64,000 nucleotides of DNA from a virus. Each line of letters starts with the position of its first letter. The stretch's first letter is position 1. The position numbers and the translations under genes are program-made. Positions 31,678 to 51,114 of the stretch are shown here, one piece after another. The notes beneath the pieces were generated by a model, which was not told where the DNA came from, did not search any database, and saw nothing but the letters and a program-made list of their open reading frames with translations. The stretch is taken from the IMG/VR virus record IMGVR_UViG_3300050343_000185. One strand, given 5' to 3'.

Positions 31678-32479
31678 TTATCCGATCATATCCATAGGTG
31701 GAATGGCGTACTTACTGAGAACTTCGCTTTCGATTTTCTCAATCTCGCCTAATGCGTCTGTATATAATTCTCTACCATTAAGCGTGATACCGCCAGGTAG
31801 TTGAACGTTGTTATATTTAATCAAGTTTTGACCCCACTGTCTCTTCATAAGAGCAGTAGCATATTTCTTGACAAACATATCATTATTCATCTCTGTAGCA
31901 TCTGTAGGATCAATCATCCTATGTGCCTCAATTACAAGATAAGTATCTTCTTTGAGGAATGCTTTATTGATGTCAAGATATAAACGATCACGACGCTGTG
32001 TATATCTGAACTGTTGGAACGAACCATTATTCAGAATCATATCTAGAGTTTCTAGATACTGCTTATTCATAAAGTAGTTGACAATATCAAGAGATCCGAA
32101 TGCATATAGATCATTCAGGAACATCTGATACTCAACACCAAAGAGATTAGATCTAATTGAGTTGCTGACTAAACCAAAAACTTTACTGACACCAACTACA
32201 TGATCTGGAACAGGAATATAGTTAGTAGACTCTTCCCAGTTTGTTGTTCCAGATGATGTTGTTGACTTACCTATTGAAACGAGTTATGTCATCGGCAGTG
32301 ATTTCATGCCTCATGAAACATCTTTCCATGCCGTTGTAGCAGTTCTCTTGGAAGAACTGATACGTGTCATCAATAACATTATTTACTTGTTCGTCATCAA
32401 TGTTAACTTGTAATACAGGCTCACCAAGTTGCCTCTTACAATATGTGATAAGATCAGCTCTTGAATTTGGAGACGCCAT
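31678..32479 (-). CDS. gp13: Neck protein (one apparent +1 indel near 32272)
   Basis: LITYCKRQLGEPVLQVN in one frame; KKYATALMKRQWGQNL and LPGGITLNG in the next. Removing one base gives a 266-aa ORF. Confidence 0.9.
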
Positions 32480-32486
32480 TACACAC

Positions 32487-32520
32487 AAAAATCCCTTCTT
32501 ACCTATTTAGGAAGAAGGGA
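32487..32520 (-). terminator. Terminator hairpin with a late promoter (CTAAATA) in its loop
   Basis: Minus strand TCCCTTCTT-CCT-AAAT-AGG-T-AAGAAGGGA-TTTTT. Confidence 0.75.
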
Positions 32521-32528
32521 TCTGAGAG

Positions 32529-32726
32529 TTATTCTACTACTTCTGTGGGCGCTGCTTCTGCTGCTTCCTCAGGTTTCTCTTCTAGAAGACCTAGAGTTTC
32601 TAGACCGCCTTCCAGTTTAATTTTATATTCTTTTGCTTTGACTAGATTTGTTTCGAGTTCAGCAATTTGCTTTTCGGTTGTAGCAATTTGCTCTTCAAAA
32701 TTTGTTTTAAGTTGTGCGGGATCCAT
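32529..32726 (-). CDS. Small acidic coiled-coil protein (65 aa)
   Basis: Heptad-like EEQIATTEKQIAELETNL. Confidence 0.7.
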   Translation of the reverse strand: MDPAQLKTNFEEQIATTEKQIAELETNLVKAKEYKIKLEGGLETLGLLEEKPEEAAEAAPTEVVE

Positions 32727-32731
32727 AGTTA

Positions 32732-33274
32732 TCAGGGGATGAAATTGAAGTTAATTACAAATCGGGAATTGTGTGTGGGTTTACTGCTTGAGTGAAAACG
32801 TAAACCATCAAAGAAAACACACCGTCCCTTCTTTGGTGTGACATTGCTATTTATATCATATTCAGCAATCGGATCTCCGTACATTCTTTCACTAAAATAC
32901 GTATCACCATCACTATCATTTACATAATATAGACAGACCATATGTGGATCTGCTAAGTCAACATGCATAGAATCATATTCTTTATGTCTCACTCCAGGCG
33001 TCTGTAAAAAACATCTACCACGAATGACATTAGAAACACTGATTCCTGTATTATAACATGCCTCAAATAAGAGAGGCATAAACATTCCAGTATAACTGCT
33101 AGTAGATTTTCCGTCAAGTAAGAACATATGAGAAAATCCTGGTAGTTGACTCTCTCCATCTTCTGATAGATTGTCGTGGTAGACCCACCTAAAATCTGTA
33201 TCAACTCTCAATGTTTCGTGAATAAAATTTTGATAGTTTGGATTGATACAGTTGTCTTTAATAATGTTCTTCAT
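32732..33274 (-). CDS. 2OG-Fe(II) oxygenase
   Basis: MHVD, LYYVNDSDGDT, RFHSSS, RFVINFN. Confidence 0.82.
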   Translation of the reverse strand: MKNIIKDNCINPNYQNFIHETLRVDTDFRWVYHDNLSEDGESQLPGFSHMFLLDGKSTSSYTGMFMPLLFEACYNTGISVSNVIRGRCFLQTPGVRHKEYDSMHVDLADPHMVCLYYVNDSDGDTYFSERMYGDPIAEYDINSNVTPKKGRCVFFDGLRFHSSSKPTHNSRFVINFNFIP

Positions 33275-33863
33275 CAGGACCCTCCACGTTCCAAGTTAAG
33301 TTTCCAGATACTGTCACTCTCTCAAGTATGGTAGATTTGAAAGGATAGACAGCATGTTTAGTTGTAGATGGAAACATTAGTATAACACCGTTCCAGGACT
33401 TATCCACAGGTAACACTTCTGCTTCTAGTTGGAACGCACCATTGCTTCTATGTGTGTTTCTCTCTTCTTCACCATATGGTATATCGACAAAGATAACAAA
33501 ACTCACAATACCAGAATGTGTATGGATAGGATTGTATTCATTTTGTCTCTGATAATTTACCCATAGGTTTCTTAGTTTGATATATGGTGTAACATTATTT
33601 GTCTGTTGAAAATCCCACGGACAGGTTTCATATACCTCAGACCACAGTTGTGTCGAAAGATTAATAACATATTCTTCAAATTCAGGACACTCATACTTCC
33701 ATTCAGATAAACTTGACTGCTGTGCCAAGGCACCAGCTAGTCGCCCATTGTAATTCCAGGTTCTTTCTTGTCTACGTTTCTTTGTATAAGCATATAGATC
33801 TTTGTATACATTGTCTGGTATTTTCTCTGATATAAATGAGAGATTGCTTTGTTGATAAATCAT
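33258..33863 (-). CDS. Putative 2OG-Fe(II) oxygenase (HxH type)
   Basis: WVNYQRQNEYNPIHTH, MFPSTTKHAVYPF, RVTVSGN. Confidence 0.82.
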   Translation of the reverse strand: MIYQQSNLSFISEKIPDNVYKDLYAYTKKRRQERTWNYNGRLAGALAQQSSLSEWKYECPEFEEYVINLSTQLWSEVYETCPWDFQQTNNVTPYIKLRNLWVNYQRQNEYNPIHTHSGIVSFVIFVDIPYGEEERNTHRSNGAFQLEAEVLPVDKSWNGVILMFPSTTKHAVYPFKSTILERVTVSGNLTWNVEGPDEEHY

Positions 33864-34375
33864 GGATATAAATCAGCACTTATACTGTATCGTTTTTGAT
33901 CTTCCACTCCTTTACCTGGTGTATGTGGTAGATTGGATGGAAATATAAACCACGTCAGTAATTTATTGGGCAAGTAATATGGTTCTCTTTTCGGTATAGG
34001 AAACATTGTAGTTCCAGATGTACCTAATTTTACATACATTATACCAGACAATGTAAAAGGATTCTCTGGATTATGTGAATGCATGTATGGTTCTATTGGA
34101 TTGTTATTCCAATCTACATACACCCACGAACTTATATTGTAATCAAATATATCCATACCCCAAAACCTGGAACATGCATCATAGAAAGACCATTTTAAAT
34201 GTTTGATCATAGGTTCATCATGTTCTAAAAAATCATCCTTACCATCAGTAAAGGTAAGTTTAGATACATGATCCATATTTTTAGTAAGGGTATTATCTAC
34301 AATAGAAGTATCAATAAATTTTATAAGTTTATCTGCATCAATATCTACTGGATATCCCCTAATTGCTAATACCAT
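33860..34375 (-). CDS. Putative 2OG-Fe(II) oxygenase (HxH type)
   Basis: YMHSH, LSGIMYV, IFPSNLPHTP, RYSISAD. Confidence 0.75.
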   Translation of the reverse strand: MVLAIRGYPVDIDADKLIKFIDTSIVDNTLTKNMDHVSKLTFTDGKDDFLEHDEPMIKHLKWSFYDACSRFWGMDIFDYNISSWVYVDWNNNPIEPYMHSHNPENPFTLSGIMYVKLGTSGTTMFPIPKREPYYLPNKLLTWFIFPSNLPHTPGKGVEDQKRYSISADLYP

Positions 34376-34946
34376 TTTCTTGTAGTTTGTGAAATAATAT
34401 GTTCATGTATATCAGGATCACAGAAAGAAAAAGCAATCGTTGTCCTGATTTCATTTCCAATTAAACTATTGGGAGGTTGACCTTTGTGTAACCAGTTTGA
34501 CGGGATGAATACTCCTGTGTTAGGAACATAAGGTGTGAAATGATATTCATCATCAGGTGTCTGACATACAAATTCACCACCCCACTCTACATCCCAGTGT
34601 GGTTGATTAAAATAAATGAACGTCCACACACCATGCTCTTCCCAATCTTTATGGAAGATGGTATTCTGTCCTGCAGTTTGACCATTGACATGTATCTTAC
34701 ATAGTTTTATATCTCTACGTAGATACTTCATCATTTTTAATCTTACGTAGTAGCACACTTAGTAAAGATAAGATCAGTTCTTAGTGGATGCTGCCAAGAC
34801 ACAGGATCACCTTGACCATATGAAGCATTGTTGAATGTCCACGTAGCTAAACTATTCATGGATGGAGATCTGCGATTAAAATAATCCCAGAGAGTAATAC
34901 ACTCTGATTCTGGTAATACATTTTTAATAACAATAGGTTTATTCAT
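34366..34946 (-). CDS. 2OG-Fe(II) oxygenase (one apparent -1 indel near 34748)
   Basis: MNKPIVIKN... joins ...IFHKDW, WGGEF, WLHKG, RTTIAF. ATGA overlap at 34943-34946. Confidence 0.78.
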
Positions 34947-35506
34947 GTCCACCAAATCCAACCAGTAATAATATATTTTTCTTGTGTCTCTGATATCTGT
35001 CCTCTATGCTTGTGAGTAAGACCTGCTGGAAAGATAACAGTTTTACCTTTCTCTGCTTTGACAGTATAATCTTGGTAGTAAAATTCTGTACCACCATCAG
35101 GAACATCATTAAGATACGTGATATAGACAAACGCTCTATCACAACCTTCAAGACCAGATGCATCTACATGCCATGTATAGAATCCATCCCCAGGTTTGTA
35201 GTATTGAATCTGAGGCAATTGTTTCGCAACAAAAGATAAATTATCAATCTTTAGTGACTGCAAATATTCTTTTATAAAACTATCAACCTGGTTTTTATAC
35301 AAATCAAATTTATAGTCCTTTGCAGATCCACATGGAGCAGCCTCTTCAATAAAAAAATCTTTACTCTTTTTTATTTCAGGGACAATACTTCCCCCACCTA
35401 CACGACCAGCATAGGTTAACTCTTTCTCGTCAGCAACATGGAACAGGTCTATTAACTTATCACAAATAGATAAATCGTTTAATTTATACTCTTTAATAAA
35501 TTTCAT
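34943..35506 (-). CDS. 2OG-Fe(II) oxygenase (prolyl-4-hydroxylase-like)
   Basis: IQYYKPGDGFYTWHVD, YLNDVPDGGTEF, THKHRG, KYIITGW; true start MKFIKE. Confidence 0.88.
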   Translation of the reverse strand: MKFIKEYKLNDLSICDKLIDLFHVADEKELTYAGRVGGGSIVPEIKKSKDFFIEEAAPCGSAKDYKFDLYKNQVDSFIKEYLQSLKIDNLSFVAKQLPQIQYYKPGDGFYTWHVDASGLEGCDRAFVYITYLNDVPDGGTEFYYQDYTVKAEKGKTVIFPAGLTHKHRGQISETQEKYIITGWIWWT

Positions 35507-36072
35507 TTGTATGCTGGTCCTTGTATCCAACCCACCAAAGAATGTCTAACACCTGATGTAATTGGTTTTACTCTATGTGGAGTGTCTGCTTGAAATAATA
35601 TAATATCTCTCTTTTTCAATTCTATCACATTTTTTTCTGATGTACGAATTTCAAATTCACCACCCTCAAACTCATCGTTTAATAAAACAGTAAAACTTAT
35701 TTTACGAACTCTATTCTCTGGTCTTTTACCAGGACTCCAGTTTGATTCGTCAATGTGCCAATCATAAAAATCATCAACATCATACTTTGTTAGTTGAAAT
35801 GGTTCCATAAAATTTACATCTAGATTCCACTCACATTTTGAATTTGCAAATGCAACCAATCCATCCATTAATTCGTATACATTACTATCATCTACCCAAC
35901 AAACTTTAGAGCTTCTATCTGGATGATCTTCACTACTACTATACGTCTCACCATCCCATAGATCAGTTTTACCTTGATTGTATTTGTTATATGGTTTTAG
36001 TGCTTTTTCTAATAAAGGAAAAAAATCATCGTCAAGATGAACGATCATATATTGATGTTTAAATGAGTTCAT
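35503..36072 (-). CDS. 2OG-Fe(II) oxygenase (PKHD/P4H-like)
   Basis: QLTKY...YDWHID...RKISFTVLLN.EFEGGEF...PHRVKPITSGVRHSLVGW; true start MNSFKH. Confidence 0.9.
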   Translation of the reverse strand: MNSFKHQYMIVHLDDDFFPLLEKALKPYNKYNQGKTDLWDGETYSSSEDHPDRSSKVCWVDDSNVYELMDGLVAFANSKCEWNLDVNFMEPFQLTKYDVDDFYDWHIDESNWSPGKRPENRVRKISFTVLLNDEFEGGEFEIRTSEKNVIELKKRDIILFQADTPHRVKPITSGVRHSLVGWIQGPAYK

Positions 36073-37750
36073 TTTTTGTAAGTACCATAACATGAATACC
36101 GTTCCACCATCCATTAGGATCTTCTGGAATTTTGGTTAGAATCTTTCTCTCAAACAAAAGATTTAAGTTGTTCTCTTTTACAAAGAACTCTGCTGCCTGC
36201 ACAACACCCATAAAATTTGCATCGTCAATAACAAGAATAAACTTGTCCGCAAATGCGGGAATCAAAAATGTTAGATTATCATACTGAGATTGTGGATCAT
36301 GATCAGCATCATAAAAAATAACATTAGGTTGTTTGTGTATATTTTTTGGTGTCAAATCTTGAATTGATTTGGGACAGAAGTATTGTTTCTCTCTCAACCC
36401 ATTAAAGAATATTTTCTTTGGGTTATCAATCTCTACATTTACTTCATCTCTAAACGGAGAAATATCTTCTTCTGAATAATCATCAACAGCAAATGCTTCC
36501 ACATCTCTATTCATGGTAGCAGCAAAGAATGTACTACCAGCATGAACACCAAGTTCCATGTAGATAGCATCAGGTTTAGACAAAAGGTTGTTTAAGAAAT
36601 GCCTTACGATATTGGAAGACAATCCTGGATACTTATATCCTTCTTCTACAAACTCACTATCACATCTTGCTGCTTTTTCAATCGATGTTAGAACTAGTTC
36701 TATATCATCATCAAAATGTCTATCACTACGTTTCATTCTGGACTGGACAACTGAATCACAATAATTACATTTCCAACAATCAAAACCACATGTCTTGATC
36801 TTCTCTCTCCAGATGTCAATTGGTTTCTCTTCTAGAGCTACATCTTCAATGTAGTCATTAAACTGTGGGTGTAGTATCTCCTCGTCTGCCGCCCATCGTT
36901 TGATAATATCCATGCTTTCCATGAGACGCATTGCATTCTCTCTGCCATGCATCTTGAATACATCAATACCTAGATCAAGAAACTCTTCCCAATCTTTTTT
37001 CCAGGGTGGGATAGTTGCTGCTTTCAGTGATGCTGCAGGATCTCTTTCATCCCATGAAGAACAAGACACCCTACTTAAACTAGTATTAAAATACTGAGGG
37101 TCATCTTTTTCTCTCACCATATTGTAATGGTAATGTTCGGGCATGATAGGACAACCACCCCAACACCATTCATTGGCAAGTAAAGAAATTTTTACTGGTT
37201 TACCAATGTCAGCACAGTATTCTTTTGCTTCTTTAATCTTAAGTAGAGTATCTCTGTCACGCATAAGATCTCTGTCTAGATTGACATAGTGAAACCCTGC
37301 TTTTGCTAGGTTCACAATCTCATTAGGTCTGGTGACTTCTCTTAGTATAGTATTTTTAATAAACAGTTCAGGAAACTCTTTCTGCAACTGTCCTGTCAAG
37401 ACCCATGATGTATGAGGTAGAGTTACAATACGAACTCCTGCATCATATAGAAATCTAAAATTTTCAATAAAAATATCTAAGTTTTCTTGAGTAGGAGGAA
37501 CTTGAATATTATTAAATGTAGCAGACAAGGGAATGCCTGTCTCTTGGGAAACAAATAAAGCATTGAGAGAGGTATCTCTCATATCCCCATCAACAACATC
37601 ACCCATCGCATCTTGCACGAAAGGTGGCATACGACAGGTGAAATAGATATCATAAATGTAATCTTTGTATTCCTTAAGAAAAGGAATCAAAGTATTAACT
37701 ACAAAATCTTCTGGTAATTTGGTGTTAAGAGGGAGAGAAAATTTTGCCAT
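36059..37750 (-). CDS. U32-family Fe-S protein fused to a C-terminal class I SAM methyltransferase (Methyltransf_24-like)
   Basis: U32-like GFHYVNLDRDL, LLANEWCWGGCP, RVSC, GIDVFKMHGRE and CGFDCWKCNYC; MTase YMELGVHAGST, AVDD, IFYDADH, LVIDD. Confidence 0.72.
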   Translation of the reverse strand: MAKFSLPLNTKLPEDFVVNTLIPFLKEYKDYIYDIYFTCRMPPFVQDAMGDVVDGDMRDTSLNALFVSQETGIPLSATFNNIQVPPTQENLDIFIENFRFLYDAGVRIVTLPHTSWVLTGQLQKEFPELFIKNTILREVTRPNEIVNLAKAGFHYVNLDRDLMRDRDTLLKIKEAKEYCADIGKPVKISLLANEWCWGGCPIMPEHYHYNMVREKDDPQYFNTSLSRVSCSSWDERDPAASLKAATIPPWKKDWEEFLDLGIDVFKMHGRENAMRLMESMDIIKRWAADEEILHPQFNDYIEDVALEEKPIDIWREKIKTCGFDCWKCNYCDSVVQSRMKRSDRHFDDDIELVLTSIEKAARCDSEFVEEGYKYPGLSSNIVRHFLNNLLSKPDAIYMELGVHAGSTFFAATMNRDVEAFAVDDYSEEDISPFRDEVNVEIDNPKKIFFNGLREKQYFCPKSIQDLTPKNIHKQPNVIFYDADHDPQSQYDNLTFLIPAFADKFILVIDDANFMGVVQAAEFFVKENNLNLLFERKILTKIPEDPNGWWNGIHVMVLTKNELI

Positions 37751-37940
37751 AATCTACAATCACTTTTTCCATATACATGTGTTCTGCTTCTGGGTTTGTG
37801 TCCAGAATATACTTATTACTTTCCGCTAACTCCAAGAGTTTTTCGCGGTTAAGATCTTTTGTTTGGTCTACCCATTCATATCTACGAAGAATAGAGTGAT
37901 GGATTACAGGAACCAATTCAAGGTGTCTTTGACTCGACAT
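37725..37940 (-). CDS. Hypothetical protein (71 aa)
   Basis: Overlaps both neighbours in the operon. Confidence 0.6.
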   Translation of the reverse strand: MSSQRHLELVPVIHHSILRRYEWVDQTKDLNREKLLELAESNKYILDTNPEAEHMYMEKVIVDYGKIFSPS

Positions 37941-38760
37941 TGTTAGTTTGCTCTATTTGTAGTTGTCCTGAGTATTTATGTTGCTGTAGTTTAGGAAGCG
38001 CAATACCATCTTCCTGTAACTGTGCTTGGATCTGTGGTGCGATCATTTTATTAAGTTTATCAATACCACCACCAATCATACCAGAATATTTAACAGCAAC
38101 ACCAAGTGCTTCCACTTGATCTTCTTCTGGCATGTCCATGATTGTTGTCATGTTACCAGCACCAATTCTACCATACGATACAATATCCATTGCTGCTTGC
38201 TTACCCATACGAGCAACCCAATAAGTTCTTACTTCATGTGGTTGTTCTTCACAGTAATATTCAATGGGATTGTCCTCGTCAACATACTTGTCAATAATAT
38301 TTAAAAAATATTTTAACTCTAGTTCAGATTGTCTGAGTTTTCTTTTCCAAATACCAACATCATAATCATTTTTCTCCATGTCAATTTGCATCAACTCTTT
38401 ATCGAGTTCATCAGGAACTAACTCCATGTCCCTAATTAATCTCTTTCTTAAAATTTCTGCTTTTCTTAAACTGTTTCTATTTTCCATGTAGGCATGATAC
38501 CTAGTTTCAAGTTCCATCAGTGCTTGACGGACTTTTCTCCATGGAGTCAATTGAGGGTCAGCAACAAAGTGCTCACACTCATACTCTGTCATGCCACTAT
38601 TAAAGCGCATACTAGCAGACAGGATATCAAAATCTTTATTGGTTAGACCAAATTCATTTACGAAAGATTTTGATAAATGGATTTCGTTAGTATCAGAACT
38701 AACAATGTTTCTTACATCTGAAACAATATCAGATAAATTAGCGTCAGAATTTAAAGACAT
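37918..38760 (-). CDS. Conserved coiled-coil hypothetical protein (280 aa)
   Basis: True start MSLNSDAN; GMTEYECEHFV...TPWRKVRQALMEL, WVARMGKQAAMDI. Confidence 0.7.
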   Translation of the reverse strand: MSLNSDANLSDIVSDVRNIVSSDTNEIHLSKSFVNEFGLTNKDFDILSASMRFNSGMTEYECEHFVADPQLTPWRKVRQALMELETRYHAYMENRNSLRKAEILRKRLIRDMELVPDELDKELMQIDMEKNDYDVGIWKRKLRQSELELKYFLNIIDKYVDEDNPIEYYCEEQPHEVRTYWVARMGKQAAMDIVSYGRIGAGNMTTIMDMPEEDQVEALGVAVKYSGMIGGGIDKLNKMIAPQIQAQLQEDGIALPKLQQHKYSGQLQIEQTNNVESKTP

Positions 38761-39553
38761 ATGCGTCACACTCATATTCAGGTTTACGATCCCAATCAGT
38801 TTCAGAGACCGTTCTGCCCATTTCAATTGCTTGTTTTTGGGGCAAGAGGATACCGATGTAATCCTCGTATAATATATTTAGGTCCCATACAGAAGTGCAA
38901 TCTTCAAATTTTTTCACTAATGATTGATATGATACGAGCATAGTGGAAAGTTTATCTTCCCATTCTTCTGCTTTTACTAAAATTTTATTTGCTAATTCAT
39001 CTTTATTAATGTGTCTTTCCATAGAAAGATAATCTAGGAAAGGAGTTTTGTGTCCTTGTCCTCCTTTATATGTCAACCATTCTCTTGCTTCATGTTTTTG
39101 AATCTCCCAAGATGCAGATTCTAAATCTGTTGTGTTCTTGAGATTTCTAAATCTTGTATTGTACTCGTCTTCAATAATTTCTTTTGCAAAATCAACCATA
39201 AAATCCATAACATCTTTTAAAATGTTATCCGTCAATTCAATGGGCACTTTAAGAATTTCATTAGCAGGTGTCCAAGCAAATCCTGCTTCTCCTGTATTTA
39301 CAGCAACCTTACCAAAAGGTCTGATCTCAGAGAAAAAGTTAGATCCGTTATAAGCTTGTTGTTTAGTAACTTCCTTATACTTGTGTTCCCACTCTTTGTA
39401 GATGACTTGATAAATTGTTTCGCTAACTTCTACACACGAGAAGTGCATCAACGAAAACATTTCGTTGTAATGTAAGCGAAGATCTCCAGTTGCCGATGAA
39501 CTGACAAACTGCTCTTGCTTGATTTCCTTTTCGTTTATGATTAGATATCTCAT
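38744..39553 (-). CDS. Tail-fibre assembly chaperone-like protein (DUF4376-like C-terminus)
   Basis: ESASWEIQKHEAREWL...TPFLDYLSMERHINKDELANKILVKA resembles phage fibre chaperones; TAATG coupling to the upstream fibre gene. Confidence 0.55.
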   Translation of the reverse strand: MRYLIINEKEIKQEQFVSSSATGDLRLHYNEMFSLMHFSCVEVSETIYQVIYKEWEHKYKEVTKQQAYNGSNFFSEIRPFGKVAVNTGEAGFAWTPANEILKVPIELTDNILKDVMDFMVDFAKEIIEDEYNTRFRNLKNTTDLESASWEIQKHEAREWLTYKGGQGHKTPFLDYLSMERHINKDELANKILVKAEEWEDKLSTMLVSYQSLVKKFEDCTSVWDLNILYEDYIGILLPQKQAIEMGRTVSETDWDRKPEYECDAYVFKF

Positions 39554-40839
39554 TATTGTGCCTGAAGTGCGGTTACAGAAGCGGCACCAGAACAGCAACC
39601 GCCAGAAGATTGACCATAATGACCTTTGGGTCTTGTCGCAGCACCCATGTTGGTCTCAACGTCAGTAGTATAATCCCACTTGGTTGTGTGGTTGTTTTGT
39701 TGACCATCATATTGTCCCATCATATAACCCCAGTCCTGTCCCATCATGAAGTTTTCTTCACCGTAAGCACGGACTTTCGTTCCGTTTGCTAGACCAGCTC
39801 CACTTGAACCACTATACTTTGACCATGGTGATGTGACATTGTTTCCAGTACCAGCATAGAAATGACCGTACTTGGAAGGTAGGAACTTACAAACTCCATC
39901 AGGAGCAGCATTGGATGACCAACCAGACCAGGAATCATTTGAGTGATCTACAGAATATCTACTACCAGAGAAAGACGCCCAAGATTTTTCTTCATCTCCA
40001 CATGCAGCAGTATGATCACTACCAGAAGGTGAACTACCTACCTGATACATAATCTCGGAAGGATAATGTAGTTTACCTACAGCAGCGTTACCGCCACCTA
40101 AGTTATAACCAAACTGTTGTTTTTGTGCGGTAGCACATGCATTCCTGTCTCTACTGACAGGCATGTTCCAACCACCAACAACAGTGTATCCCATGACGCC
40201 TCTAGGGTCGTCACCTTCCCAACCATATGGGGAAGTTGGAGAGTAAGTACCACCACCAGGATTACTTCCTGTAGTACCAAACATTCTCCTCATACCTGTG
40301 TGTAGGTTGATGGAATCAGTATGACTGGATGCTCCCGTGAATGCATTAATGCAACCGTGAGCATAACCAAAGTAATCACTCCAGGTACAGTCAGCATAAG
40401 TTAGTGCTCTAGTTAACTGCTCACCACAATAGAATGTAATATCATTTGCGTGCCATGTTTTATTAACAGTTCTCCAAGGATTAGATCCTTTATACCCCGC
40501 CACCAGAAAACCATGTGTTATCAAACTCCTATATCTGAATCCTGTAAGAGGAGCAGATGCAACAGTTTGACCAGGATACGCCCAGAAAACACCGTTTTCA
40601 CCATCGGATACTAGATAAGATCCTCTAGTGATATTTGCAGGTTCGGGGATACCCCCACCAACCTCATCCCAGTCAGATCCATTCCAGATCTGTGCTTTGT
40701 TTTCATCGGTATTATAAATGATTTGACCGACGTTTGGGGATGCTGGTCTTCCCGCGTTGTTAAAAGATGGTAGTTTTAAACCTTGAGTGGTTAAACTAGC
40801 ATTTCCTGTAACAACTGTTCCAACAGTTAACTGAGACAT
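39553..40839 (-). CDS. Virion fibre-tip / receptor-binding protein with Kelch-like beta repeats
   Basis: N-terminal MSQLTVGTV and GQIIYNTDENKAQIWNG adaptor; aromatic-GG repeats; G/S/W/Y-rich. Confidence 0.65.
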   Translation of the reverse strand: MSQLTVGTVVTGNASLTTQGLKLPSFNNAGRPASPNVGQIIYNTDENKAQIWNGSDWDEVGGGIPEPANITRGSYLVSDGENGVFWAYPGQTVASAPLTGFRYRSLITHGFLVAGYKGSNPWRTVNKTWHANDITFYCGEQLTRALTYADCTWSDYFGYAHGCINAFTGASSHTDSINLHTGMRRMFGTTGSNPGGGTYSPTSPYGWEGDDPRGVMGYTVVGGWNMPVSRDRNACATAQKQQFGYNLGGGNAAVGKLHYPSEIMYQVGSSPSGSDHTAACGDEEKSWASFSGSRYSVDHSNDSWSGWSSNAAPDGVCKFLPSKYGHFYAGTGNNVTSPWSKYSGSSGAGLANGTKVRAYGEENFMMGQDWGYMMGQYDGQQNNHTTKWDYTTDVETNMGAATRPKGHYGQSSGGCCSGAASVTALQAQ

Positions 40840-40863
40840 GGTTACGCTTCTGTCCTATAAAAG

Positions 40864-40870
40864 TATTTAG
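40864..40870 (-). promoter_or_regulatory. Late promoter CTAAATA heading the 40839-32529 operon
   Basis: Same heptamer precedes gp13, gp17, gp18, the 29313 gene and the 51067 fibre gene. Confidence 0.7.
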
Positions 40871-41220
40871 GGTTTTGGATAGTTTTCTTTAACAAGTTTC
40901 ACAGCAGCATACCAAGAGGAAGTATCTTTTCCTGGAACCAGACCACTTTCCATGTCATGAAATAACATATCTAATTGATCTGCAATTCCAGGATAGTCCA
41001 TTCTTCTTGAAAGATCATATGAAGGGGGTTTCAAAACTACTCTCTGAATCTCCCTATCTTGGAAATTGTAGAAGTAATCAGCTTCAGTATCTTTTGGTTC
41101 TAATTCATATGGACCTTCGATCCACATAAAATCTTCATGAACTTCAAATCTTCCTTCAGTTCCAGTTTTTAAGAACTGACAAATATTTCCTGTTTCCTTA
41201 TGAACTAATGATTGGTACAT
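40867..41220 (-). CDS. Fibre assembly chaperone-like protein (117 aa)
   Basis: True start MYQSLVHK; RRMDYPGIADQLDMLFHDM...VKENYPKP motif typical of small fibre chaperones. Confidence 0.6.
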   Translation of the reverse strand: MYQSLVHKETGNICQFLKTGTEGRFEVHEDFMWIEGPYELEPKDTEADYFYNFQDREIQRVVLKPPSYDLSRRMDYPGIADQLDMLFHDMESGLVPGKDTSSWYAAVKLVKENYPKP

Positions 41221-41221
41221 A

Positions 41222-41977
41222 TCAAGTATACTCCCATACGATAACGCAACCAGCACCGCCGTTGCTATTGTTATAAGCAAAATCATTCTGTGAATAATAA
41301 CCATAACCACCGCCAGAACCCCACTGTCCGTGAGTAATTTCTTCTTGGTTGTTATAGTAATGGTGAGACGATCCTGCTTTGTGCCAATAACTAGATCCGC
41401 CTGCACCTTCTCTGTTGGCATCGTGTGCCATTTCTCCACCACCACCAGGGACGTTAATGTCTCCACCACTGGCATTTCCACCAGGACCACCTTGGTGAGG
41501 GTTGTCTGATTGTCCGCCTTGTCCACCAGTAGCAGTACAATAAGAACCAAAAGATGAAGTTCCTCCCGTTCCTGCTCTTCCGCCATTTCTTACATATGCA
41601 CCACCGCCACCATACTGGTAAGTAACGCTAGCAACACCAGAGAGATCAATATATTTGATTGAAGTAGCGCCGCCACCTCCACCTGCACCACGGTAGCTGT
41701 TATCATTAATGCGTGCTCCACCTCCACCGCCAGTAACATATACTAAAACATGGTTGCAACCCGCAGGTTTTGTCCAAGTTCCAGATCCACCAGAAGTAGA
41801 TTTAGCATTCCACGTACCATTTTGCGATGTATACACTTGAATGCCAAGTAAAGCACCAGGAGTGGTCATGTCAGAATAACCACTGCCATCCCAAATTTGT
41901 AATTTATCATTCTGCAGATCCATAATATTAACACCAGCGGTGTTTTGGATCTGGTCAACTTTTAAAATGCCTGCCAT
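41222..41977 (-). CDS. Glycine-rich fibre-tip / adhesin-like protein
   Basis: MAGILKVDQIQ start; GTWTKPAG...VTGGGGG...GGTSSFGSY...GGAGCVIVWEY. Confidence 0.7.
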   Translation of the reverse strand: MAGILKVDQIQNTAGVNIMDLQNDKLQIWDGSGYSDMTTPGALLGIQVYTSQNGTWNAKSTSGGSGTWTKPAGCNHVLVYVTGGGGGARINDNSYRGAGGGGGATSIKYIDLSGVASVTYQYGGGGAYVRNGGRAGTGGTSSFGSYCTATGGQGGQSDNPHQGGPGGNASGGDINVPGGGGEMAHDANREGAGGSSYWHKAGSSHHYYNNQEEITHGQWGSGGGYGYYSQNDFAYNNSNGGAGCVIVWEYT

Positions 41978-41983
41978 AATTTT

Positions 41984-44900
41984 TTATACGATAGCCCAGT
42001 TACCACCACTATTTATAGTTACAGTGTAACCAGTAGCAATAGTAATAGGTCCAGCACTTACACAGTTAATATTTGCTGGAATAATTACGTCCTCAGCAAC
42101 TGTGTTACTATTAGATTTAAAGATACCATATGAGTCTATCCATTGCTTGACACCATTAGAATAAAGGGTTCCATTCGCAACTTGAATATCACCAGAAACA
42201 TCTAGTTCATATACTGGATCTGCTTTATTGACACCAACTTTAGAAATTCTATAGATGTCTAAATTGTTAGTTGCTTCTGTCCATCTTGAAGTTACAAACT
42301 CCGCATTGTTCTGGAAGAACTGACCATTAATGTTCATATCTCCCTGAACATTCAACTTATAATTTCTGGTTGTGTTAGATTCTGGATCTACACCAGATGT
42401 AGAAGTTGTGTTAATAGAGACAGCGTTAACATCACCCTTAATGCTGATAGCAGGAGTTCCATTCCAAGTTGTTCCACCATTATCAGTGGATGCTTGGATT
42501 GTGAATAGATGGTTGCCAACTAACTGGTTACCAACTCTAAAGTTTCTATAGGAAGAAGCACCACGGAAACTAATTGGAGCACCACTATTATCATTTGCTT
42601 GGTCGATGGTTAGTCCATCATTAAAGCATCCATTACCAGCAACTTCAAAGGTGAAGTTTGGTTCACGGGTGAGTCCAACACCCATTCTTCTTGTAGCAAG
42701 AATATCACCAGTAACTTGTAGTGCTAGTTTAGTTTCTGTTCCTTCAATAAAGAATGCTTCATTATATTGGGAGTTTGGTGTGTTACTATCAGAGTGATAA
42801 TATTCAATTTTACCATTTTGAGCTGCTGATCCTAGATCAGAGAATCTAATTTGAGCTCCAACACTATCAGTTGATGTGCGAACAAAAATACCAAGATCAC
42901 CAACAACATCTAGATTAGCTACTGGATTTGTAGTATTAACACCAACTTCATTTGCCGATACATCTACAAATAGTACACCACTATCTACGTTAAAATCATC
43001 TGCGACATTAACAAAACTATTTAAGTTTGTGGTTCCGGATACTGTTAAGTTAGAACCAGATCCAGTAAGGACCAAAGGTCCGGTCATGGTATCGCCTGTC
43101 TTCAATACGTTAAGTGAAGAAGCACCAGTTACATCTGCAGTAATTGTTCCCGCAGAGAAATTGCCAGAAGCATCACGCTGTACCGCATAATTTGGAACGT
43201 TAGAACTACTAAACAGGATATTGCCAGCATTCCAAATAACTTGATTGTTTATTGTAAAAGCATTAGCGTTTACAACAGAAACATTAAGAGCGCCAGAACC
43301 ATCAGTTGCATTACCACCAGATGCTTCAATTTTTGCATTAAAGTTTGCGGACAGTTGCGAAGAGTTGAATATAATTGAGGGTGAAGATGTAATGCCATCT
43401 TTTCTACCTAACTGTAGTTCTGCGACACCACCATTACTTTGGAAGTTAGCAACTTCTACAGTATTACCATCTTCAATAGTAAAGTCGTCAAACTCTACTC
43501 TATTAGATGCAGTACCAATTGTTAAGGCACCAACAAAATTACCGGAAGTTAATCTACCAATCAGAATTGTATAATCATTAAAGTTGTCAGTAAGGTCATC
43601 ATTGGTTATAACATTGTCGAGGACAAAACTACCAACACCTTGTGCGTTCGCATTATAAAGATTGATTGAAGGGTTAGTAGGATCGCCAGGAATAAATGGC
43701 GCAGTGTTTAAGATCTGACCGGAAACATAAATTCTATACTTAGGATCTCCACTGAATGACTTAATGGTAATTTTATCTCTAAATTTAGTTTCACTAATAA
43801 ATCTAGGAAGGCGATTTTCAGATAGTGTGCCGTAGTTAATGTTTAGAGCATCCTGATACCAAGTTCCTTGTCTATTATCTAATCTGTCAGCATCTAGTCC
43901 AGAGTCAACACCATCATTTAGTGAACTCCATACTCTAGCCCAAGAGTTCCAGGTTGTGACTCCGTTACCAGAACCACGAAGATACATGTTATCATCATTA
44001 GCAAACGCAAGTTGTCTTACGCCACCAAATGATGCGTCGAAACCAGACGCACCGTTTCTTAGAGTTAGAACTAAGTGCTTAGTTGATGTGCCAGATCCAA
44101 TACCAGTATTAACAGAAGGATAAGCAGATCCCAATCCGTTGGAGCTATTAAATACTGTGTTTGAAATAGCACCTTCAACAAAACTGTTTGGATCTGGATT
44201 TGATGTTGGGTTGTTAGTACCAGTTTGTAATCTGATAGTGTTGTTTGAAGATCCACTAACGTCAATATTGTAAGTACCATTTAATCTATCGGATGGAATT
44301 GTTCCAGAAAATAGATTGGATGCATTTGTATAGTAATTACCTTGCTGACCATCTAGTAAGTCAGCGTCTAGACCACTATCTGGACCTGTCTTAAGTTCAA
44401 CCGAACCATTACCAGCCTGACCGATATTGAACTGTGCTTTCTTATATCTAGAAACACCAATTGTTCCGTAAAGATCAGCGGAAATAGTTAGATCCGAAAC
44501 TCTGGTGATATCAATAGCAACGTTTGCATACTGTCTATTAACAGTAGAAACTTTAGCATTCAATACAAGATTAGAACCAGCACCAATTTCTGTTGGAGAA
44601 ACTGTGATAGCATAGTCAGCGTTGTATCCACTACCACCATCGGTAACTGTCAGATCTGTAACTGCGTTGCCAGAAACAACAATATTTGCTTTAAGACCTG
44701 TGCCTGTGCCACCTTGTAGTTCAACATCAAAATACTGACCATTAGTATATCCACTACCACCATTGGCAACGATAACAGCATCAACAAATCCACCTAAAGT
44801 ATAGGTAGATTCAAACGTCATTGGAGATTCGCCACGCTCAAATTCGATGATCGTGTTGATTGGAATATTTTGTGTTACTGGATTGTTTAGTGCTACAGTG

Positions 44901-47900
44901 GTTAAACCAGCAGCTGTGATAACACCAGTGATGTTTGTATTATTTTGAACACCGGCAACGTTGTTCTTAACTTCGTGTCCGATTAGAACATCAGAGTTGG
45001 TAGTAAACAACATCTGACTAGAACCAGAATTACACTGTGCTGCTAGTAGAGCAAAGTATCTTCTCTCAGCACCCTTAATGGATTGCATGGCAAGAGCAAA
45101 GTTTTGGTCGCCACGTAAGAAAGTGAATGAGTTTGCAGCACCGCCAGATGCTAGTCTATCTGTTTCAATAACACCGGATGTAATATCGGATGCAGCAATC
45201 TGGTTGGAAGATAGAGATACCCAGTTATTAATATCGAATGAAGATGTATTAACACCTCTGTTAATGTTAATTGTATTTGGAGTAGGTGATGTACTATCGT
45301 TAATAGTATCGGTGTCTTCAATTTTAATATTATTAACAATATTGCCATACAATCTGCTTTCAAGTAAAGCATTACCTTGTGCTTGTACACCAGCTCCAGG
45401 AGGAGCAGCGAATGTTATAGTAGGAGCAGTGGTATATCCAAAACCACCTTTATAACCATTGAAGTCGATGATTGTTACAGTAACTACTGTACCATTGGCA
45501 ATAGTACAAGTTGCGGCAGCTGCGACTGCACCTGCTTCTGGATTGCCACCAGCAAATGTAATTACCGGTGGGGTTACATATCCAGAACCACCGTTGTTGA
45601 CATTAATTTGATATACAACACCCTTTCTGTATTCAGTTGATTGGATACGTCCAGTAGAAATGCTACCGGTAAATACATCACCAATAGTAAATGATAATGC
45701 TGGATCTACAGCAAACCCTAGGAACAAACTAGAATTATCATTGTTTAGAATGAATGATGTGGATGTATCCTGTTGGATCGCAATATCACCAGCAAGTGCT
45801 CCTTCTAGTGAAGTTCTTTCTGCTTGGTTGGCAACAGTGAAGACACTAAATGGTCTAAGTGCTGGGATCTGGTCGATAGAAATTTTACCAGAATCAGTAA
45901 GTTCAACCAGTGCTCTAGGAACAGCATTCGTAGAGTATGGTTTGTTGATGTAAGGTCCAAGGTTGTTAGTGATATAATCTCTAACTGCCTTTTGTGTGGG
46001 TAGTTTAGAGTCGGTCGCAGTTGCGCCACCAAGTGTGTTGGATGCGTCGAAACCAGTAACAACAACGTCGCCACCTTTCAGTTTCAAGAATTCAACTTCA
46101 GAAATTGTAACCGTACCAGTGAAAGTAATATTACCAGTTCTGTTTTCAATTCTAGCAAACGTACCAACTTTAAAGTCGCCAAGTTCGTCAGTACCAGAGA
46201 CATATACACGTCCATACTGTTCGGAAACTTGTTCAAATGCTTCAATCTTAGTACCACCGTTCTCAGGTAGTGCTAAGTAATTAGTTCCCGAACCAGCAAA
46301 TTCCCAAGTGTGGGAAGAAGAGTTAACAATAGATGGTCTGTGTAGATTGATTGTCTTACCTAACAATGAACCAGTAGATACTGCCTGATTAGTTGCATTA
46401 TCGGTTAGATCCATGGCACCACCTGTGCCATCGTCAAATGTTAACTGAGCAGAGAAAGGAGGACCAACTGTAACTGCAGCAACAACATCAACAAAGTATT
46501 CGATGTCTGTATTAGTATTTCTATAACCATCAATTTTAGCAACATAATGCTCTAGTGGTTCTCTTCCTAAACCAGTTACTGTTAGAATAGTTCTACCAGT
46601 AGGAGTAGAAGAAACGTTAGAGATTGTTGCAATATCAAATGTATATGGATCTTCTCTAAATCCAATACCTCTTAGAGCATACTGTCCGAAGTTAGTAGCG
46701 GAGTTGGTGATAGATGCATAACCACCAGATTCACAAAGAACGCCATCAGCACAGAAGATAACAAAGACAGAAACTAACTGAGTATAACCATCGTTTATAA
46801 CTTTATAACCTGTGCCACCAAAAGATACAATCGTGAATGCCGCAGCAACCATCGACTTACCCTGATTAGGGAAGGATGCGGATCCATCTAGTTCAAGACC
46901 AGGGAAAGGACAGTTAGGTTGTTTGACCTTACTACCATCAATTAGAGCACCACCACCACCTAGGAAGGAGATAACAGATGCATTTTGAGTGTATGGTGAT
47001 GCTTCGATGATAGGATTATCATCAAAGTCACCCCGAATTGCCATTCTTACATTATTGGAATCATAGATAAAATTATCAGGATATGTTATTAGCAATGCTG
47101 GATCAAATAATGTTCCAAAAGTTTTAACTGTTGTTCCAGCAGAAATTGTCTCATCTAAAATATCTTCAAACAGATCCATTATTGTATTAATGGAAGTTGC
47201 GACATTCGCACATAGTGGTGTGGAATCCAATAAGATATTCCAATCATCAAACCTAGGAATGGTGGAAGTTACTGTAGTCGGATTGAATATAATGATCGTT
47301 CCGTTTGTTTTTGCACTAACAAATGTATGAGCAATTCCTGCTGCAGTTCCTGCGTCTCCAACGTTCAATCCAATGGCAATCATTGTCGTTCCAGTTACAG
47401 AATTGATTTCGTAACTCTTTCCGTAGTTGGAATCAAATCTGTTTGGACTTGCGTGGTTAGCAGCGCCACCACCCATATCACAGGAGAAAGTGATAGCATC
47501 TTCTGTAAACGCAATTCTGTCTCCTACCTGTGGAATACCACCACCAGAAACAGGGTAAGTGATATTTAAATCACCTGTAGTAGAATTGTAAATGGCACCA
47601 ACTGGTGTTACAGAATCGACTACACCATCAGACCAGTTACGCATTGTTTCCAATGCATATATTTTAACTCTCTGGAAAGCATATATCGTAGAAGGACGCT
47701 GCGCTTCGGCAATACCAGTTAACTGAACACCAGTGAAGTATGATTCAGCAACAGTAACAATTCCATTATTGCCACCAAGTACCAAGTCTTTGATAAGACC
47801 ATCAAGTACAATTCTAATATCTCTACGACATTTTCTTTGGTTGGTATCGCTAAGATTTAATGAAGGAAATTGTGCTTCCGTATCAATAAGTGCTTGATCA

Positions 47901-50900
47901 GCAATAAGATCTTTATTTCTAGAAATTAAATACGCAGCATCTAGATATGTGCCGGACGCATTATTGGTAATGACATCAGACCAAAGGAATGATAAAGTAT
48001 CAATAGCAGATGCTACGTTAGCACAAGCAGGTGTTCCTGCAGTTAATGTAATAATAGTATCATCAAAATATCTTGGTAAAGATGAATGTAGTGGTGTGTA
48101 GATGGGATCCGATGGAGCACCATTTTCGGTTCTCCAGTTCCTCATACAATAAATTGCTAGTTCTCTAGCATATTCAATAGCACGAGCATTTTGAATAATT
48201 TCATCTTCAATGTAAGTAATCTTACCATCTACAATATATTTTTGAGCTGCTTCAATTACATTATGATTAGATCCAAATTCTAAATCTCTAATGATTGCGT
48301 TAATAAAGTGAACAATATCTTCTTTACACTGACTATCACCATCACTGCCAGTAGCACTTGGTGAACTATAAGATGGATAAACTTTTTGACCAGCATCACA
48401 TTCTAGAGTCATTCCCTCTAGTTTGATGTGATCATCTTCATTCAAACCCGCAACAAGACTATCTGTTGTTACAGTTGCAACACCAGTTACAGCGTTACTG
48501 TAAACAAAGTTTAAAACGTTATAAGTAGTACCACCAAACTTTACAGTACCACCAGAAACATATGTGTGAGATTGTTCTGCAAGACCTACAAAAATATCAA
48601 ATGAGTTTCCGCTGATATTATATGCAGAGTAGAAGTATCTTGCAAATTGATCGTTAATTTTACCTACGACTTCATCAGCAATAAAATCTCTATTGTTACG
48701 CAGTAACGTACAGGCGTCTTGGAACCTCCTATCTACAGGAGAACTAATTGGGAATGTGTTTGGGGAGTTAAGTAGCGATAAGGTAATAGATTTTGTTGCT
48801 GTCTTAACAGTTGCAAATTGACCTGGATCAAATTCCGCATCAGTAAGAGCTGGCATTTTTTTAGGAATGACAAATCGTCTGCAACGACCATCAGCATCTT
48901 CTAATACTTTATAAATTCTCTGTCTGCCATTTAACGCAGATAGATCAGGTGAAGAAGTTGGGAGACCTTCAATTAAGATCTCTTGACCTTCTTTAAACTC
49001 ATGTGTATTATTTCTGCCAACCAGAGCATTTGTATAAAATACAATACCACCAAGATCTTCTGCATTCCCAAATTGGGTGCCTTGGAATCCACCAGTTGCA
49101 ATACTGGTATCTCCTTGTAATGAGAAATCTAATCTGGAGATAGGCAAAAGTGATGTGTAATCTTCATCTACAGAAACAACTTCTCCCTCAGCACGAATTG
49201 ATTTGAGAGCTGTAGTATTTAATGTTTCTACCTGAGCATTTCCGGTAAATACTTCAATAGACGCAGTTTGAATTGCGGTCCATCCAGTAGATCCAAGAAC
49301 AGGTAAGTAACTAACTTCCCATGAAGTTGGATTGTTGATATCATTTGGTTCAATTTGAGTTACTTCGTAGTAACCAGCAGAAGGAGTAAATATTGCATTA
49401 CCATCATCACTTAAATATACGTATGTTCCAGCTGGGGTTATAGAAGTTGGATCAGTGCTAAATGTAATTTTGTTTGCAGAAGTTGTTCCGGTAGACGTTA
49501 ATGCTAAGGGACTTCCTACGCTATAACTAATAGAAGTTACAAAATTAAATTGTTCTCCCTCAACAAAAGAACCACTATCTAGTGTAATATCAAGAGTACC
49601 ACTAATGTATGCACTAGGACCAGTAATATCATCAAATACAACTTTTTGTATATTTGCTCTGGAACCAGTGTTAACACCAATTACGCTCAATCCAGTAATT
49701 AAAGTAGATAGACCAGTGTTATTTTGGAATGTAACTCTGAACTGTTGTGGTCCAAAAATTTGATGACCGATTGGGAAACTAGTACCAAAATCTCCATTGA
49801 CATCAGCATCAATTAAGATACGCTGTTTATCGTCAAAGACCATTGCGAAATCCCAAGTCGCAACTGCATCGCCATTGGAATCAATCTTATCTCTGTAAGT
49901 GACACCAGTAACGTAGTTTTTATCACCAAACTTGAAGATATGCTTGCCGGGGTTGGCAGGTCTGATAATTACGAGACGAAGGTTATCGCCAACAACTGAT
50001 GCGTCAGGTGGCAGTGAAATTGGGTTATCTTCTACGTAGTCACCACCAGAAACAATAAGGGTCTCCTTAACACCAGGAGTCGCCCATGCAAGTTGTGCTG
50101 CTTTCTTGATAGAACGAACTGGGTTTACGGCAGAACGACCATCGTTTAAGTCAGAACCAATAGTTTGTGAAACGTAAATACGACCACCAACGTCATTCGT
50201 TGCTAGGTTGAGGACGTATTCTGTAGTAGCAATCTTGTCTGATCTATCTCCTAGTAAAGGAGTAATAGAACGAGGGAATACCCCAGATGCACCAGTTTCT
50301 GAATATCCAAAATCATTTTCGTCAACTACACGAAAACCAATATGTTTGAAATTAACTTCACCATTTAGTGCTTCGCCATCCGTATGAACAGGTGCGCTAG
50401 ATCCAGTTTGTCCTGAGTTTAATGCTTGATATACGTTCTGTCCAAAGTACCTGTACGCATTTTCCTGTAGAATAATATTCGAGGACCATAAAGTACCCGA
50501 ATTATTAATATAAGTTTTTAGAGAGGGTGCTCTAAATGCTGCGTTTGGAGTAACGAAGTTGTCGATATCCAAGTTGAGGATTCTCGCCGTATCGGAAATG
50601 ATAGACGTAGAGGTTCTAATAGCACCGTTGATGTCAAGTTCAAAATCAACAGTATCAAGTAATGCCTCAGCAGAAGCACCAACACCGCCACCAGCTTGAA
50701 TGGTAACTGTAGGAGCTTGAGTATATCCACTGCCGGGATCATTGACAGCAATAGATACAACCTGACCATTAAAGATAAATGCAGAACCCTGTGCTTGGAC
50801 TCCACCCCCACCAATAGGTGCCGATATTGTTATAATTGGTGGCGAAATATATCCAGAACCACCAGTTAAAATTTTAACATCATTAACTCTCTGCCCCGTT

Positions 50901-51107: not shown

Positions 51108-51114
51108 TATTTAG
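51108..51114 (-). promoter_or_regulatory. Late promoter CTAAATA
   Basis: 40 nt upstream of the 3027-aa fibre start. Confidence 0.65.

Follow-up and report, generated by a model that had tools for sequence, protein, structure and literature searches.

Within a 64,000-nucleotide stretch of viral DNA (IMG/VR record IMGVR_UViG_3300050343_000185, hereafter the window), we analyzed a run of genes at positions 32,487 to 40,870 that an earlier note, made from the sequence alone, had described as a self-contained late operon coupling a fiber-tip and chaperone module to hydroxylating and methylating enzymes. The source phage is a T4-like cyanomyovirus: the genes for gp13, gp14, and gp15 (neck/sheath-stabilizer) lie directly downstream of the run, a 3,027-aa fiber gene lies upstream, and the nearest isolates by gp15 and gp13 are the Synechococcus phages ACG-2014e and S-RSM4. 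Cyanomyoviruses belong to the most abundant ocean viruses, and to our knowledge their many 2-oxoglutarate (2OG)-Fe(II) oxygenases have been without an assigned function since the first genomes.

The run of 12 open reading frames (ORFs) was borne out, with all genes on the minus strand, 10 of the 11 junctions overlapping by 1–56 nt and the remaining one being a 5-nt gap. The run is real but three-layered: it consists of a conserved cassette (the first five genes below), a variable array of six oxygenase genes that this lineage has gained right after the fusion gene, and a 65-aa gene that groups with gp13. In order of transcription, the genes are:

39553..40839, minus strand: 428-aa protein (T4-GC351, phrog_1417), with a fiber-anchor N-terminus at about aa 13–64 and a predicted six-bladed Kelch-type propeller at about aa 103–420
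38744..39553, minus strand: 269-aa protein (T4-GC352, phrog_1604), from a PHROG of unknown function
37918..38775, minus strand: 285-aa protein (T4-GC353, phrog_1409), from a PHROG of unknown function, with an alternative TTG start at 38826
37725..37940, minus strand: 71-aa protein, conserved over its full length within the clade; putative helper
36059..37750, minus strand: 563-aa fusion enzyme (T4-GC354, phrog_1458), with a U32-like TIM barrel at aa 1–345 and a class I O-methyltransferase of the cation-dependent type at about aa 365–563
35503..36114, minus strand: o203, a 203-aa 2OG-Fe(II) oxygenase (PF13640, phrog_61), weakly PKHD/PiuC-like (PiuC E 4e-5)
34943..35506, minus strand: o187, a 187-aa 2OG-Fe(II) oxygenase (PF13640, phrog_61), homolog of Syn9 gp50
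34366..34946, minus strand: o193, a 193-aa 2OG-type oxygenase (phrog_274), split into 67 + 130 aa by a 1-nt deletion
33860..34375, minus strand: o171, a 171-aa double-stranded beta-helix (DSBH) oxygenase-like protein (phrog_81, weak PF13759), with HxH...H...R
33258..33863, minus strand: o201, a 201-aa 2OG-Fe(II) oxygenase (PF13759, phrog_81)
32732..33274, minus strand: o180, a 180-aa 2OG-type oxygenase (phrog_274), homolog of Syn9 gp51 and gp53
32529..32726, minus strand: 65-aa protein (phrog_580), a coiled coil according to the earlier note's prediction

The 65-aa gene belongs to the neck module, because phages that have no cassette likewise keep it immediately ahead of gp13. With this last gene assigned to the neck module and the oxygenases being a variable add-on, the single dedicated 12-gene pathway proposed earlier is not supported. 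A set of cyanomyovirus 2OG oxygenases is now tied to a conserved, late, fiber-linked cassette, whose core enzyme pairs a predicted O2-independent hydroxylase-type domain with an O-methyltransferase.

Linkage and late transcription of the cassette

To our count, the fusion enzyme is present in 117 cyanophage records and, as its N-terminal domain alone, in three Ralstonia jumbo phages (120 records). With one copy per record throughout, 117 records have the propeller domain, 117 the 285-aa protein, and 112 the 269-aa protein. When organism names (rather than accession lists) were compared, the propeller, the 285-aa protein, and the fusion gave an identical 71/38/8 split across their 117 records each. 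Taking gp15 as a marker of about 451 cyanomyovirus records, roughly one-quarter carry the cassette, many of these records being near-duplicates. Fusion homologs number more than 2,000 in metagenomes, and a relative is encoded on 526 IMG/VR contigs. The order propeller, 269-aa, 285-aa, and fusion gene is the same in P-SSM4, Syn19, S-RIM12, and P-HM2, and, among 80 IMG/VR loci, the cassette order is unchanged in all those that extend far enough. The cassette was found at two genome positions, both behind fiber genes. Such strict co-occurrence in a fixed order speaks for cooperation of the propeller with the helpers and the fusion enzyme late in infection.

Of the linkage described for the whole run, that of fiber tip, helpers, and fusion has held, while the oxygenase battery is variable and ACG-2014e has none of the block. 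In this isolate (locus L098, 21383–22477), the interval from the giant fiber gene to the 65-aa gene holds just a 61-aa and a 301-aa gene, as against 9.2 kb in the window. The block missing from ACG-2014e (32735–41980) comprises a 251-aa gene, a 117-aa gene, the cassette genes, and the oxygenases, and because all of it is missing there, we regard it as an exchangeable segment. The 301-aa and 428-aa proteins have only about 75 N-terminal residues in common, which looks like a swap of the distal fiber domain.

A simple lineage-specific insertion of the oxygenases was also considered, and this explanation was softened once Pfam revealed other oxygenase families and halogenases in relatives that had seemed empty. 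Thus, several loci without oxygenases by tblastn carry other families by Pfam (PF13759) or DUF6445 proteins, and locus L089 has an oxygenase together with a ferredoxin-like protein. Inside its cassette, after the 285-aa gene and before the fusion gene, locus L085 (4151–9998) holds three oxygenases confirmed by Pfam as well as two tryptophan halogenases; locus L083 (2806–7122), judged by layout, has a similar ORF arrangement with one halogenase-sized ORF. A distant stand-alone U32-like gene (L093) lies between a Gly_rich_2 protein and a tryptophan halogenase.

The transcription signals found in the run are listed here:

40864..40870, minus strand: CTAAATA late-promoter-like motif, 25 nt upstream of the 428-aa gene and overlapping the stop codon of the upstream 117-aa gene
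38875..38881, minus strand: CTAAATA internal late-promoter-like motif in the 3' part of the 269-aa gene, 100 nt before the 285-aa ATG
37973..37979, minus strand: ATAAATA internal late-promoter-like motif, 33 nt before the 71-aa gene
32848..32855, minus strand: TATAAATA late-promoter-like motif within the 180-aa gene, 122 nt before the 65-aa gene
32483..32523, minus strand: intrinsic-terminator-like hairpin with U-tract, whose loop (32504–32510) is a CTAAATA 31 nt before gp13

The CTAAATA at 40864 and the hairpin at the end of the run had both been predicted, and both are present. In the hairpin, UUUUU comes after a stem of roughly 14 bp (−21.8 kcal/mol, z −3.84), and this terminator and the next late promoter, the gp13 motif, overlap as one element. 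The word CTAAATA shows no enrichment across the window (9 observed vs. 14.5 expected), and 9/9 occurrences lie on the coding strand. Conservation of the TAAATA core was scored in non-identical upstream regions of related IMG/VR contigs, the loci being akin and the counts not independent. The core lies within 150 nt (mostly 20–40 nt) before the 428-aa gene in 26/33 distinct related regions, 100–130 nt before the 285-aa gene in 44/46, and within 150 nt (mostly 30–50 nt) before the 71-aa gene in 36/39; it also precedes the 65-aa gene in 27/28 distinct related regions and gp13 in 33/37 related regions. Within 150 nt upstream of the 563-aa gene it was seen in only 1/57 related regions, and upstream of the first oxygenase in 0/32. 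Sigma-70-like promoter matches and further terminator-like matches in the region were at or below chance.

The claim of a self-contained operon is not supported by this layout: no terminator separates the run from the giant-fiber genes upstream, the stop codon of the 117-aa gene sits inside the CTAAATA, and three further late-promoter-like motifs lie inside the run. The arrangement is likely one of nested late units sharing one terminator, including a predicted enzyme sub-operon that would start from the ATAAATA before the 71-aa gene. Because the array has no promoter motif of its own, the oxygenases are probably co-read with the 71-aa and fusion genes from that motif.

Late expression, which had been assumed for the entire run, is documented for orthologs of four cassette genes. 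In the P-HM2 time course, each of PHM2_098–101, which are orthologous to the genes for the propeller, the 269-aa protein, the 285-aa protein, and the fusion, is classed as "Late" (PMC5082946, supplementary file 3); the T4-GC100 oxygenase PHM2_041, unlinked to the cassette in that phage, is classed as "Mid" (PMC5082946). Metatranscriptomic libraries contain contigs at least 99% identical to the window that span portions of the cassette and of three oxygenase genes, with DNA carry-over possible, with starts, strand, and level unreadable, and with gaps in coverage carrying no information. Two contigs from RNA-type libraries (X1 and X2) end at 38882 and 40882, 1–12 nt from two of the CTAAATA motifs, contig ends not being equivalent to transcript ends.

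Proteins of the cassette and the array

The 563-aa protein combines a U32-like barrel with a class I O-methyltransferase, in agreement with the fusion read from the sequence before. For the N-terminal domain, the best barrel match is the U32 protein Mk0906 (PDB 5d88; Z 15.0, root-mean-square deviation [rmsd] 3.6, 219 residues over positions 1–276), only about 1.3 Z above unrelated TIM barrels. No direct PF01136 match of the 563-aa protein was obtained at E ≤ 0.1, nor any at E ≤ 10 in a six-frame search of a 15.6-kb IMG/VR fragment (G001), which is 100% identical to the window over the region. Profile comparison of the domain family with Escherichia coli UbiU and UbiV by hhalign gave no match (probability <1%), and a local phmmer search with UbiU and UbiV against 150 family representatives likewise gave none. 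The link to the superfamily comes through a relative, P0259 (336 aa), which aligns to the domain over its full length (phmmer E 6e-15 among 1.8 billion proteins; BLASTP 1e-24) and itself scores 39.3 bits against PF01136, where the cut-off is 22.4; among 30 distant relatives of the domain scanned with Pfam, P0259 alone was positive for this family. In a language-model (Atlas feature) search, PF01136-bearing clusters ranked first, at 0.98. Because there is no direct PF01136 match, we treat the domain as a divergent relative and not a curated member, that is, as a putative, mostly viral branch of the U32 superfamily outside the curated PF01136 family. This separate branch comprises about 290 clusters at 50% identity.

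Seven cysteines are invariant in 59 diverse relatives, namely C196, C200, C230, and the four of a CX3CX2CX2C motif (C321–C331); in the cyanophage forms, C179 is invariant as well, and C39 is more than 90% conserved. The spacing C179-x16-C196-x3-C200 resembles the 4Fe-4S motifs of U32 enzymes (PMC6747719), and binding of a cluster is predicted only. The domain is thus like UbiU/UbiV, RlhA, and Mk0906 in its TIM barrel and in having CX16CX3C plus a distal Cys, compared with CX15CX3/4C and CX12CX3C in the known 4Fe-4S motifs; unlike UbiU/UbiV and RlhA, the window enzyme is fused to a methyltransferase and falls in its separate, mostly viral branch. Among the papers covered by a literature search, none mentions a U32-like enzyme in cyanophages.

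The methyltransferase domain matches PF13578 (Methyltransf_24) at 22.2 bits (E 2.8e-4), under the 26.3 cut-off, and many homologs carry PF13578. Its fold is closest to 8c9v (Z 16.0), the TrmR structure 5zw3 (Z 15.5, rmsd 2.5, 162 residues), 5x7f (Z 15.2), and 8k1f (Z 13.9). Invariant in this domain are E399, G401, G405, D423, D481, D509, D510, and N512, which stand at the positions expected for, and are candidates for, the glycine motif that binds S-adenosylmethionine and the acidic/Asn residues that bind metal. PDB sequence searches returned nothing useful, whether started from the 563-aa protein, from its alignment, or from the family profile of the N-domain; the whole-protein Foldseek results, mainly PRMT5 and pyruvate kinase, were dismissed as two-domain look-alikes. 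In the Ralstonia jumbo phages RP12 and RP31, the U32-like domain stands alone (41% identity), without a methyltransferase; in RP12 (ORF139–ORF138; L007 5986–8059), its gene is followed by one for a membrane protein resembling DUF401/CitMHS transporters.

Structure prediction points to a Kelch-like fiber tip as well. In the AlphaFold2 model of the 428-aa protein, whose mean predicted local distance difference test (pLDDT) score is only 55, the top eight structure matches are all Kelch domains (Z 20.7–17.5, 254–283 residues aligned; best 3ii7), consistent with a six-bladed fold; no Pfam Kelch repeat was detected in the protein. Residues 13–64 match the N-termini of several fiber-like PHROGs, and the N-terminus also matches those of other cyanophage fiber-cluster proteins, including the ACG-2014e 301-aa protein at the same position. 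Receptor-binding proteins typically combine a common N-terminal anchor with distal domains that can be exchanged.

The 269-aa protein had been described as a DUF4376-like chaperone, a label that finds no support: DUF4376 (PF14301) gave no match in this protein at E ≤ 0.1 and none anywhere in the region in the six-frame search at E ≤ 10, and the only Atlas leads were weak (tail-protein, HI1402_helical, and XkdW at 0.87–0.91). The 71-aa protein was considered as a precursor peptide and rejected, its conservation along the whole protein being unlike a leader-core pattern. A complex prediction for the 563-aa enzyme with the 285-aa protein scored 0.00, which is uninformative either way.

The six consecutive oxygenases of at least three subtypes described before were found, one of them frameshifted in the window. 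They form three PHROG families of two members each (phrog_61, phrog_274, and phrog_81), the phrog_61 pair, o203 and o187, being prolyl 4-hydroxylase (P4H)/PKHD-like. Above the Pfam cut-off are o203 (58 bits), o187 (47.5), and o201 (42.8); below it and matched by PHROG are o180 (phrog_274, 4e-35), o193 (phrog_274, 3e-18), and o171 (phrog_81, 7e-7). In a MAFFT alignment of these very distant sequences, HxD...H...R/K is present in o203, o187, o193, o180, and the T4-GC100 "denV" proteins, and HxH...H...R in o171 and o201. It is plausible from these patterns that all six keep the metal triad and the basic residue that binds 2OG.

The family phrog_274 is labeled "DNA endonuclease V" and includes the "denV" gene (T4-GC100) that directly follows the fusion gene in P-SSM4 (L001 9686–10195), Syn19 (L002 9695–10192), and S-RIM12 (L004 9698–10198), where it is annotated as "denV" or "tail fiber protein." The three GC100 "denV" proteins that were tested had zero Pfam matches of any kind, and the HxD...H...R pattern was present. 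For the tested phrog_274 members, the cyanophage label "denV / DNA endonuclease V" is thus probably a propagated misnomer, the proteins looking like 2OG-type oxygenases.

Possible targets of the cassette enzymes

Judging by gene linkage only, our best guess is that the cassette enzymes probably tailor a component of the virion. The two enzyme domains would fit best with C-hydroxylation followed by O-methylation: the U32-like domain would hydroxylate an aromatic or heteroaromatic C–H without O2, as characterized U32 enzymes do, the fused methyltransferase would turn the resulting OH into OCH3, and the oxygenases, together with the halogenases of relatives, would place further marks. That oxygenases and halogenases repeatedly arrive at the locus without promoters of their own suggests that they act on the same target as the cassette. 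This target would be a virion-associated component made concurrently, most likely the propeller or the neighboring glycine-rich fiber protein; a virion protein is our preferred candidate, with an RNA base or a small molecule as alternatives. The region would then belong to an island of fiber-accessory genes, late-transcribed and exchangeable, that lies between the giant fiber gene and the neck genes, and we hold the explanation as a whole tentatively, at somewhat less than an even chance. A more specific version, which we think unlikely, has the U32-like domain hydroxylating aromatic side chains of the propeller or a nearby fiber protein in an O2-independent reaction, the methyltransferase capping them as methoxy groups, and the oxygenases and halogenases adding marks, which would diversify the receptor-binding surface. 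If true, a U32 enzyme would for the first time have a protein as its substrate, and phages would have a new way of varying their host range. Should cassette-dependent hydroxyl or methoxy marks exist on virion proteins, they would reveal enzymatic tailoring of phage receptor-binding proteins and an additional class of U32 substrates.

A comparable arrangement has been proposed in bacteria: dioxygenases would hydroxylate proteins of the tail-collar and collagen-like kinds that are encoded with them (Iyer et al. 2010; PMC2938197). In those operons, themselves predictions, and for viral and bacterial P4H, hydroxylases likewise stand beside fiber-like or glycine-rich proteins; the operons combine hydroxylation with sulfation, not methylation, and are without a U32-like enzyme or a Kelch propeller.

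Several observations weigh against tailoring of a virion component. All characterized U32 enzymes that we know of act on RNA bases or quinones and none on proteins, and we found no published virion proteome covering the cassette proteins. The narrow lead of Mk0906 over unrelated barrels, the absence of a direct PF01136 match, and the failed hhalign comparison with UbiU and UbiV bear on the U32 assignment itself. In the Ralstonia jumbo phages, the U32-like domain has a transporter-like neighbor and no fiber gene, and S-ShM2 carries its fusion gene at a distance of about 6 kb from those for the propeller, the 269-aa protein, and the 285-aa protein. As for the array, the number of oxygenases between the fusion and 65-aa genes falls from 6 to 0 in relatives (tblastn), with fewer at greater divergence; the closest isolate homologs of the 193-aa oxygenase, the one member searched, adjoin nrdAB and tRNA genes, away from fibers; and the P-HM2 GC100 oxygenase is a middle gene.

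These last points are what a plain insertion hot spot, a serious rival, would predict. Here, the junction between fibers and neck would gather independent auxiliary genes, for DNA/RNA repair or 2OG turnover, on shared late read-through, and only the four or five cassette genes would cooperate, the oxygenases being uncoupled from them. Besides the changing copy number, the composition of the array shifts among relatives, the nearest isolate does without the whole 9.2-kb block, the closest homologs of the 193-aa oxygenase in isolates stand beside nrdAB or tRNA genes, and P-HM2 keeps its "denV" unlinked to the cassette. Sullivan et al. (2010), who catalogued many 2OG oxygenases per cyanophage genome, proposed roles in nitrogen/2OG metabolism or repair. 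We nevertheless consider this rather unlikely, given that divergent phages repeatedly have varied oxygenase families and halogenases next to the cassette or within it, that no promoter motif separates the fusion gene from the array, and that start and stop codons overlap throughout the array. Another possibility is that the cassette makes or tailors a small molecule or short peptide, akin to a secondary metabolite, that is released or bound by the propeller. Cyanophage tandem dioxygenase arrays with halogenases (Syn9 gp41–54) were described by Iyer et al. (2010), who proposed secondary-metabolite synthesis for them (PMC2938197), so tandem dioxygenase arrays of cyanophages were already on record. 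Like the window's array, that of Syn9 consists of tandem, small, mutually distant 2OG-Fe(II)/DSBH genes directly behind tail-fiber genes, and window oxygenases of three families are homologous to Syn9 gp48, gp50, gp51, and gp53 (o187 to gp50, o180 to gp51 and gp53, o201 to gp48 and also gp60). Tryptophan halogenases occur both in the Syn9-type array and in window-related contigs, a Rieske or ferredoxin-like protein adjoins some relatives, and a transporter-like gene adjoins the Ralstonia phage copy. The Syn9 array differs in having ten oxygenases against six in the window, where no halogenase or JmjC member was seen, and in lying in the early/fiber junction region rather than before gp13; the window array also adjoins the U32-methyltransferase cassette, whereas no such cassette turned up in Syn9, a phage absent from the 120 records with the fusion enzyme or its N-terminal domain. 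Set against a small molecule, no NRPS, PKS, ATP-grasp, or cyclase gene was seen in the window's run or the scanned related stretches, the 71-aa protein is conserved over its full length, unlike a leader-core precursor, and the fusion strictly co-occurs with a fiber-anchored propeller; we rate this reading as distinctly unlikely.

The fusion might also be an RNA modifier in the manner of TrhP plus TrmR, hydroxylating C5 of a pyrimidine in tRNA (of host or phage) or rRNA and then O-methylating it to tune late translation, its place among fiber genes being incidental. In Bacillus, hydroxylation and methylation steps are encoded by neighboring genes. The U32 enzymes TrhP and RlhA hydroxylate tRNA U34 and 23S rRNA C2501, respectively (PMC6599085, PMC5727448), and the methyltransferase domain has the TrmR structures 5zw3 and 8k1f among its best structural matches. 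In the conversion of tRNA U34 to 5-hydroxyuridine (ho5U) and on to 5-methoxyuridine (mo5U) by TrhP (YegQ; B. subtilis TrhP1/TrhP2) and TrmR (YrrM), a U32-type enzyme is likewise followed by an O-methyltransferase of the cation-dependent type, the two forming one chain in the window. By score, TrmR is not set apart, tying with many other O-methyltransferases at Z 16.0–13, and the U32-like domain is remote from canonical TrhP, RlhA, and UbiU/V. Unlike TrhP/TrmR, the fusion has no direct PF01136 match, carries the extra CX3CX2CX2C, keeps fiber-type partners in place of translation genes, and comes with no indication of an RNA substrate; no RNA-binding domain was detected in it. Strict, fixed-order co-occurrence with the propeller and helper genes would be needless for an RNA enzyme, and the fusion is not host-like, unlike most auxiliary metabolic genes. 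In our view, RNA modification is very unlikely, and tailoring of a virion component remains the reading we prefer.

Sequence irregularities and neighboring genes

Compared with a 94% identical ENA contig of the same gene order, the window has two uncompensated 1-nt indels. A deletion near 34745–34747 splits the third oxygenase (34366–34946), and the missing base is present in public-library contigs at least 99% identical to the window. An insertion near 32272 (32267–32280) breaks gp13 (31678–32473, minus strand), which is an intact 266-aa gene in the 94% identical contig; the extra base at 32272 is missing from another public run. Because gp13 is an essential neck protein, both indels are most likely sequencing or assembly errors.

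Upstream of the run, three fiber-type genes are packed as tightly as the run itself and have their own late motifs at 51108 and 42010. The giant fiber-like protein of 3,027 aa (41984..51067) has a CTAAATA before its gene at 51108–51114, and its ACG-2014e counterpart has 3,114 aa. The 251-aa Gly_rich_2 (PF21722) protein, which the earlier note had named in a proposed test, is encoded outside the region, at 41222–41977, with its own TATAAATA at 42010–42017. A 117-aa protein (phrog_1787) is encoded between this gene and the cassette (stretch 40867–41977), and the two may be another fiber protein with its helper.

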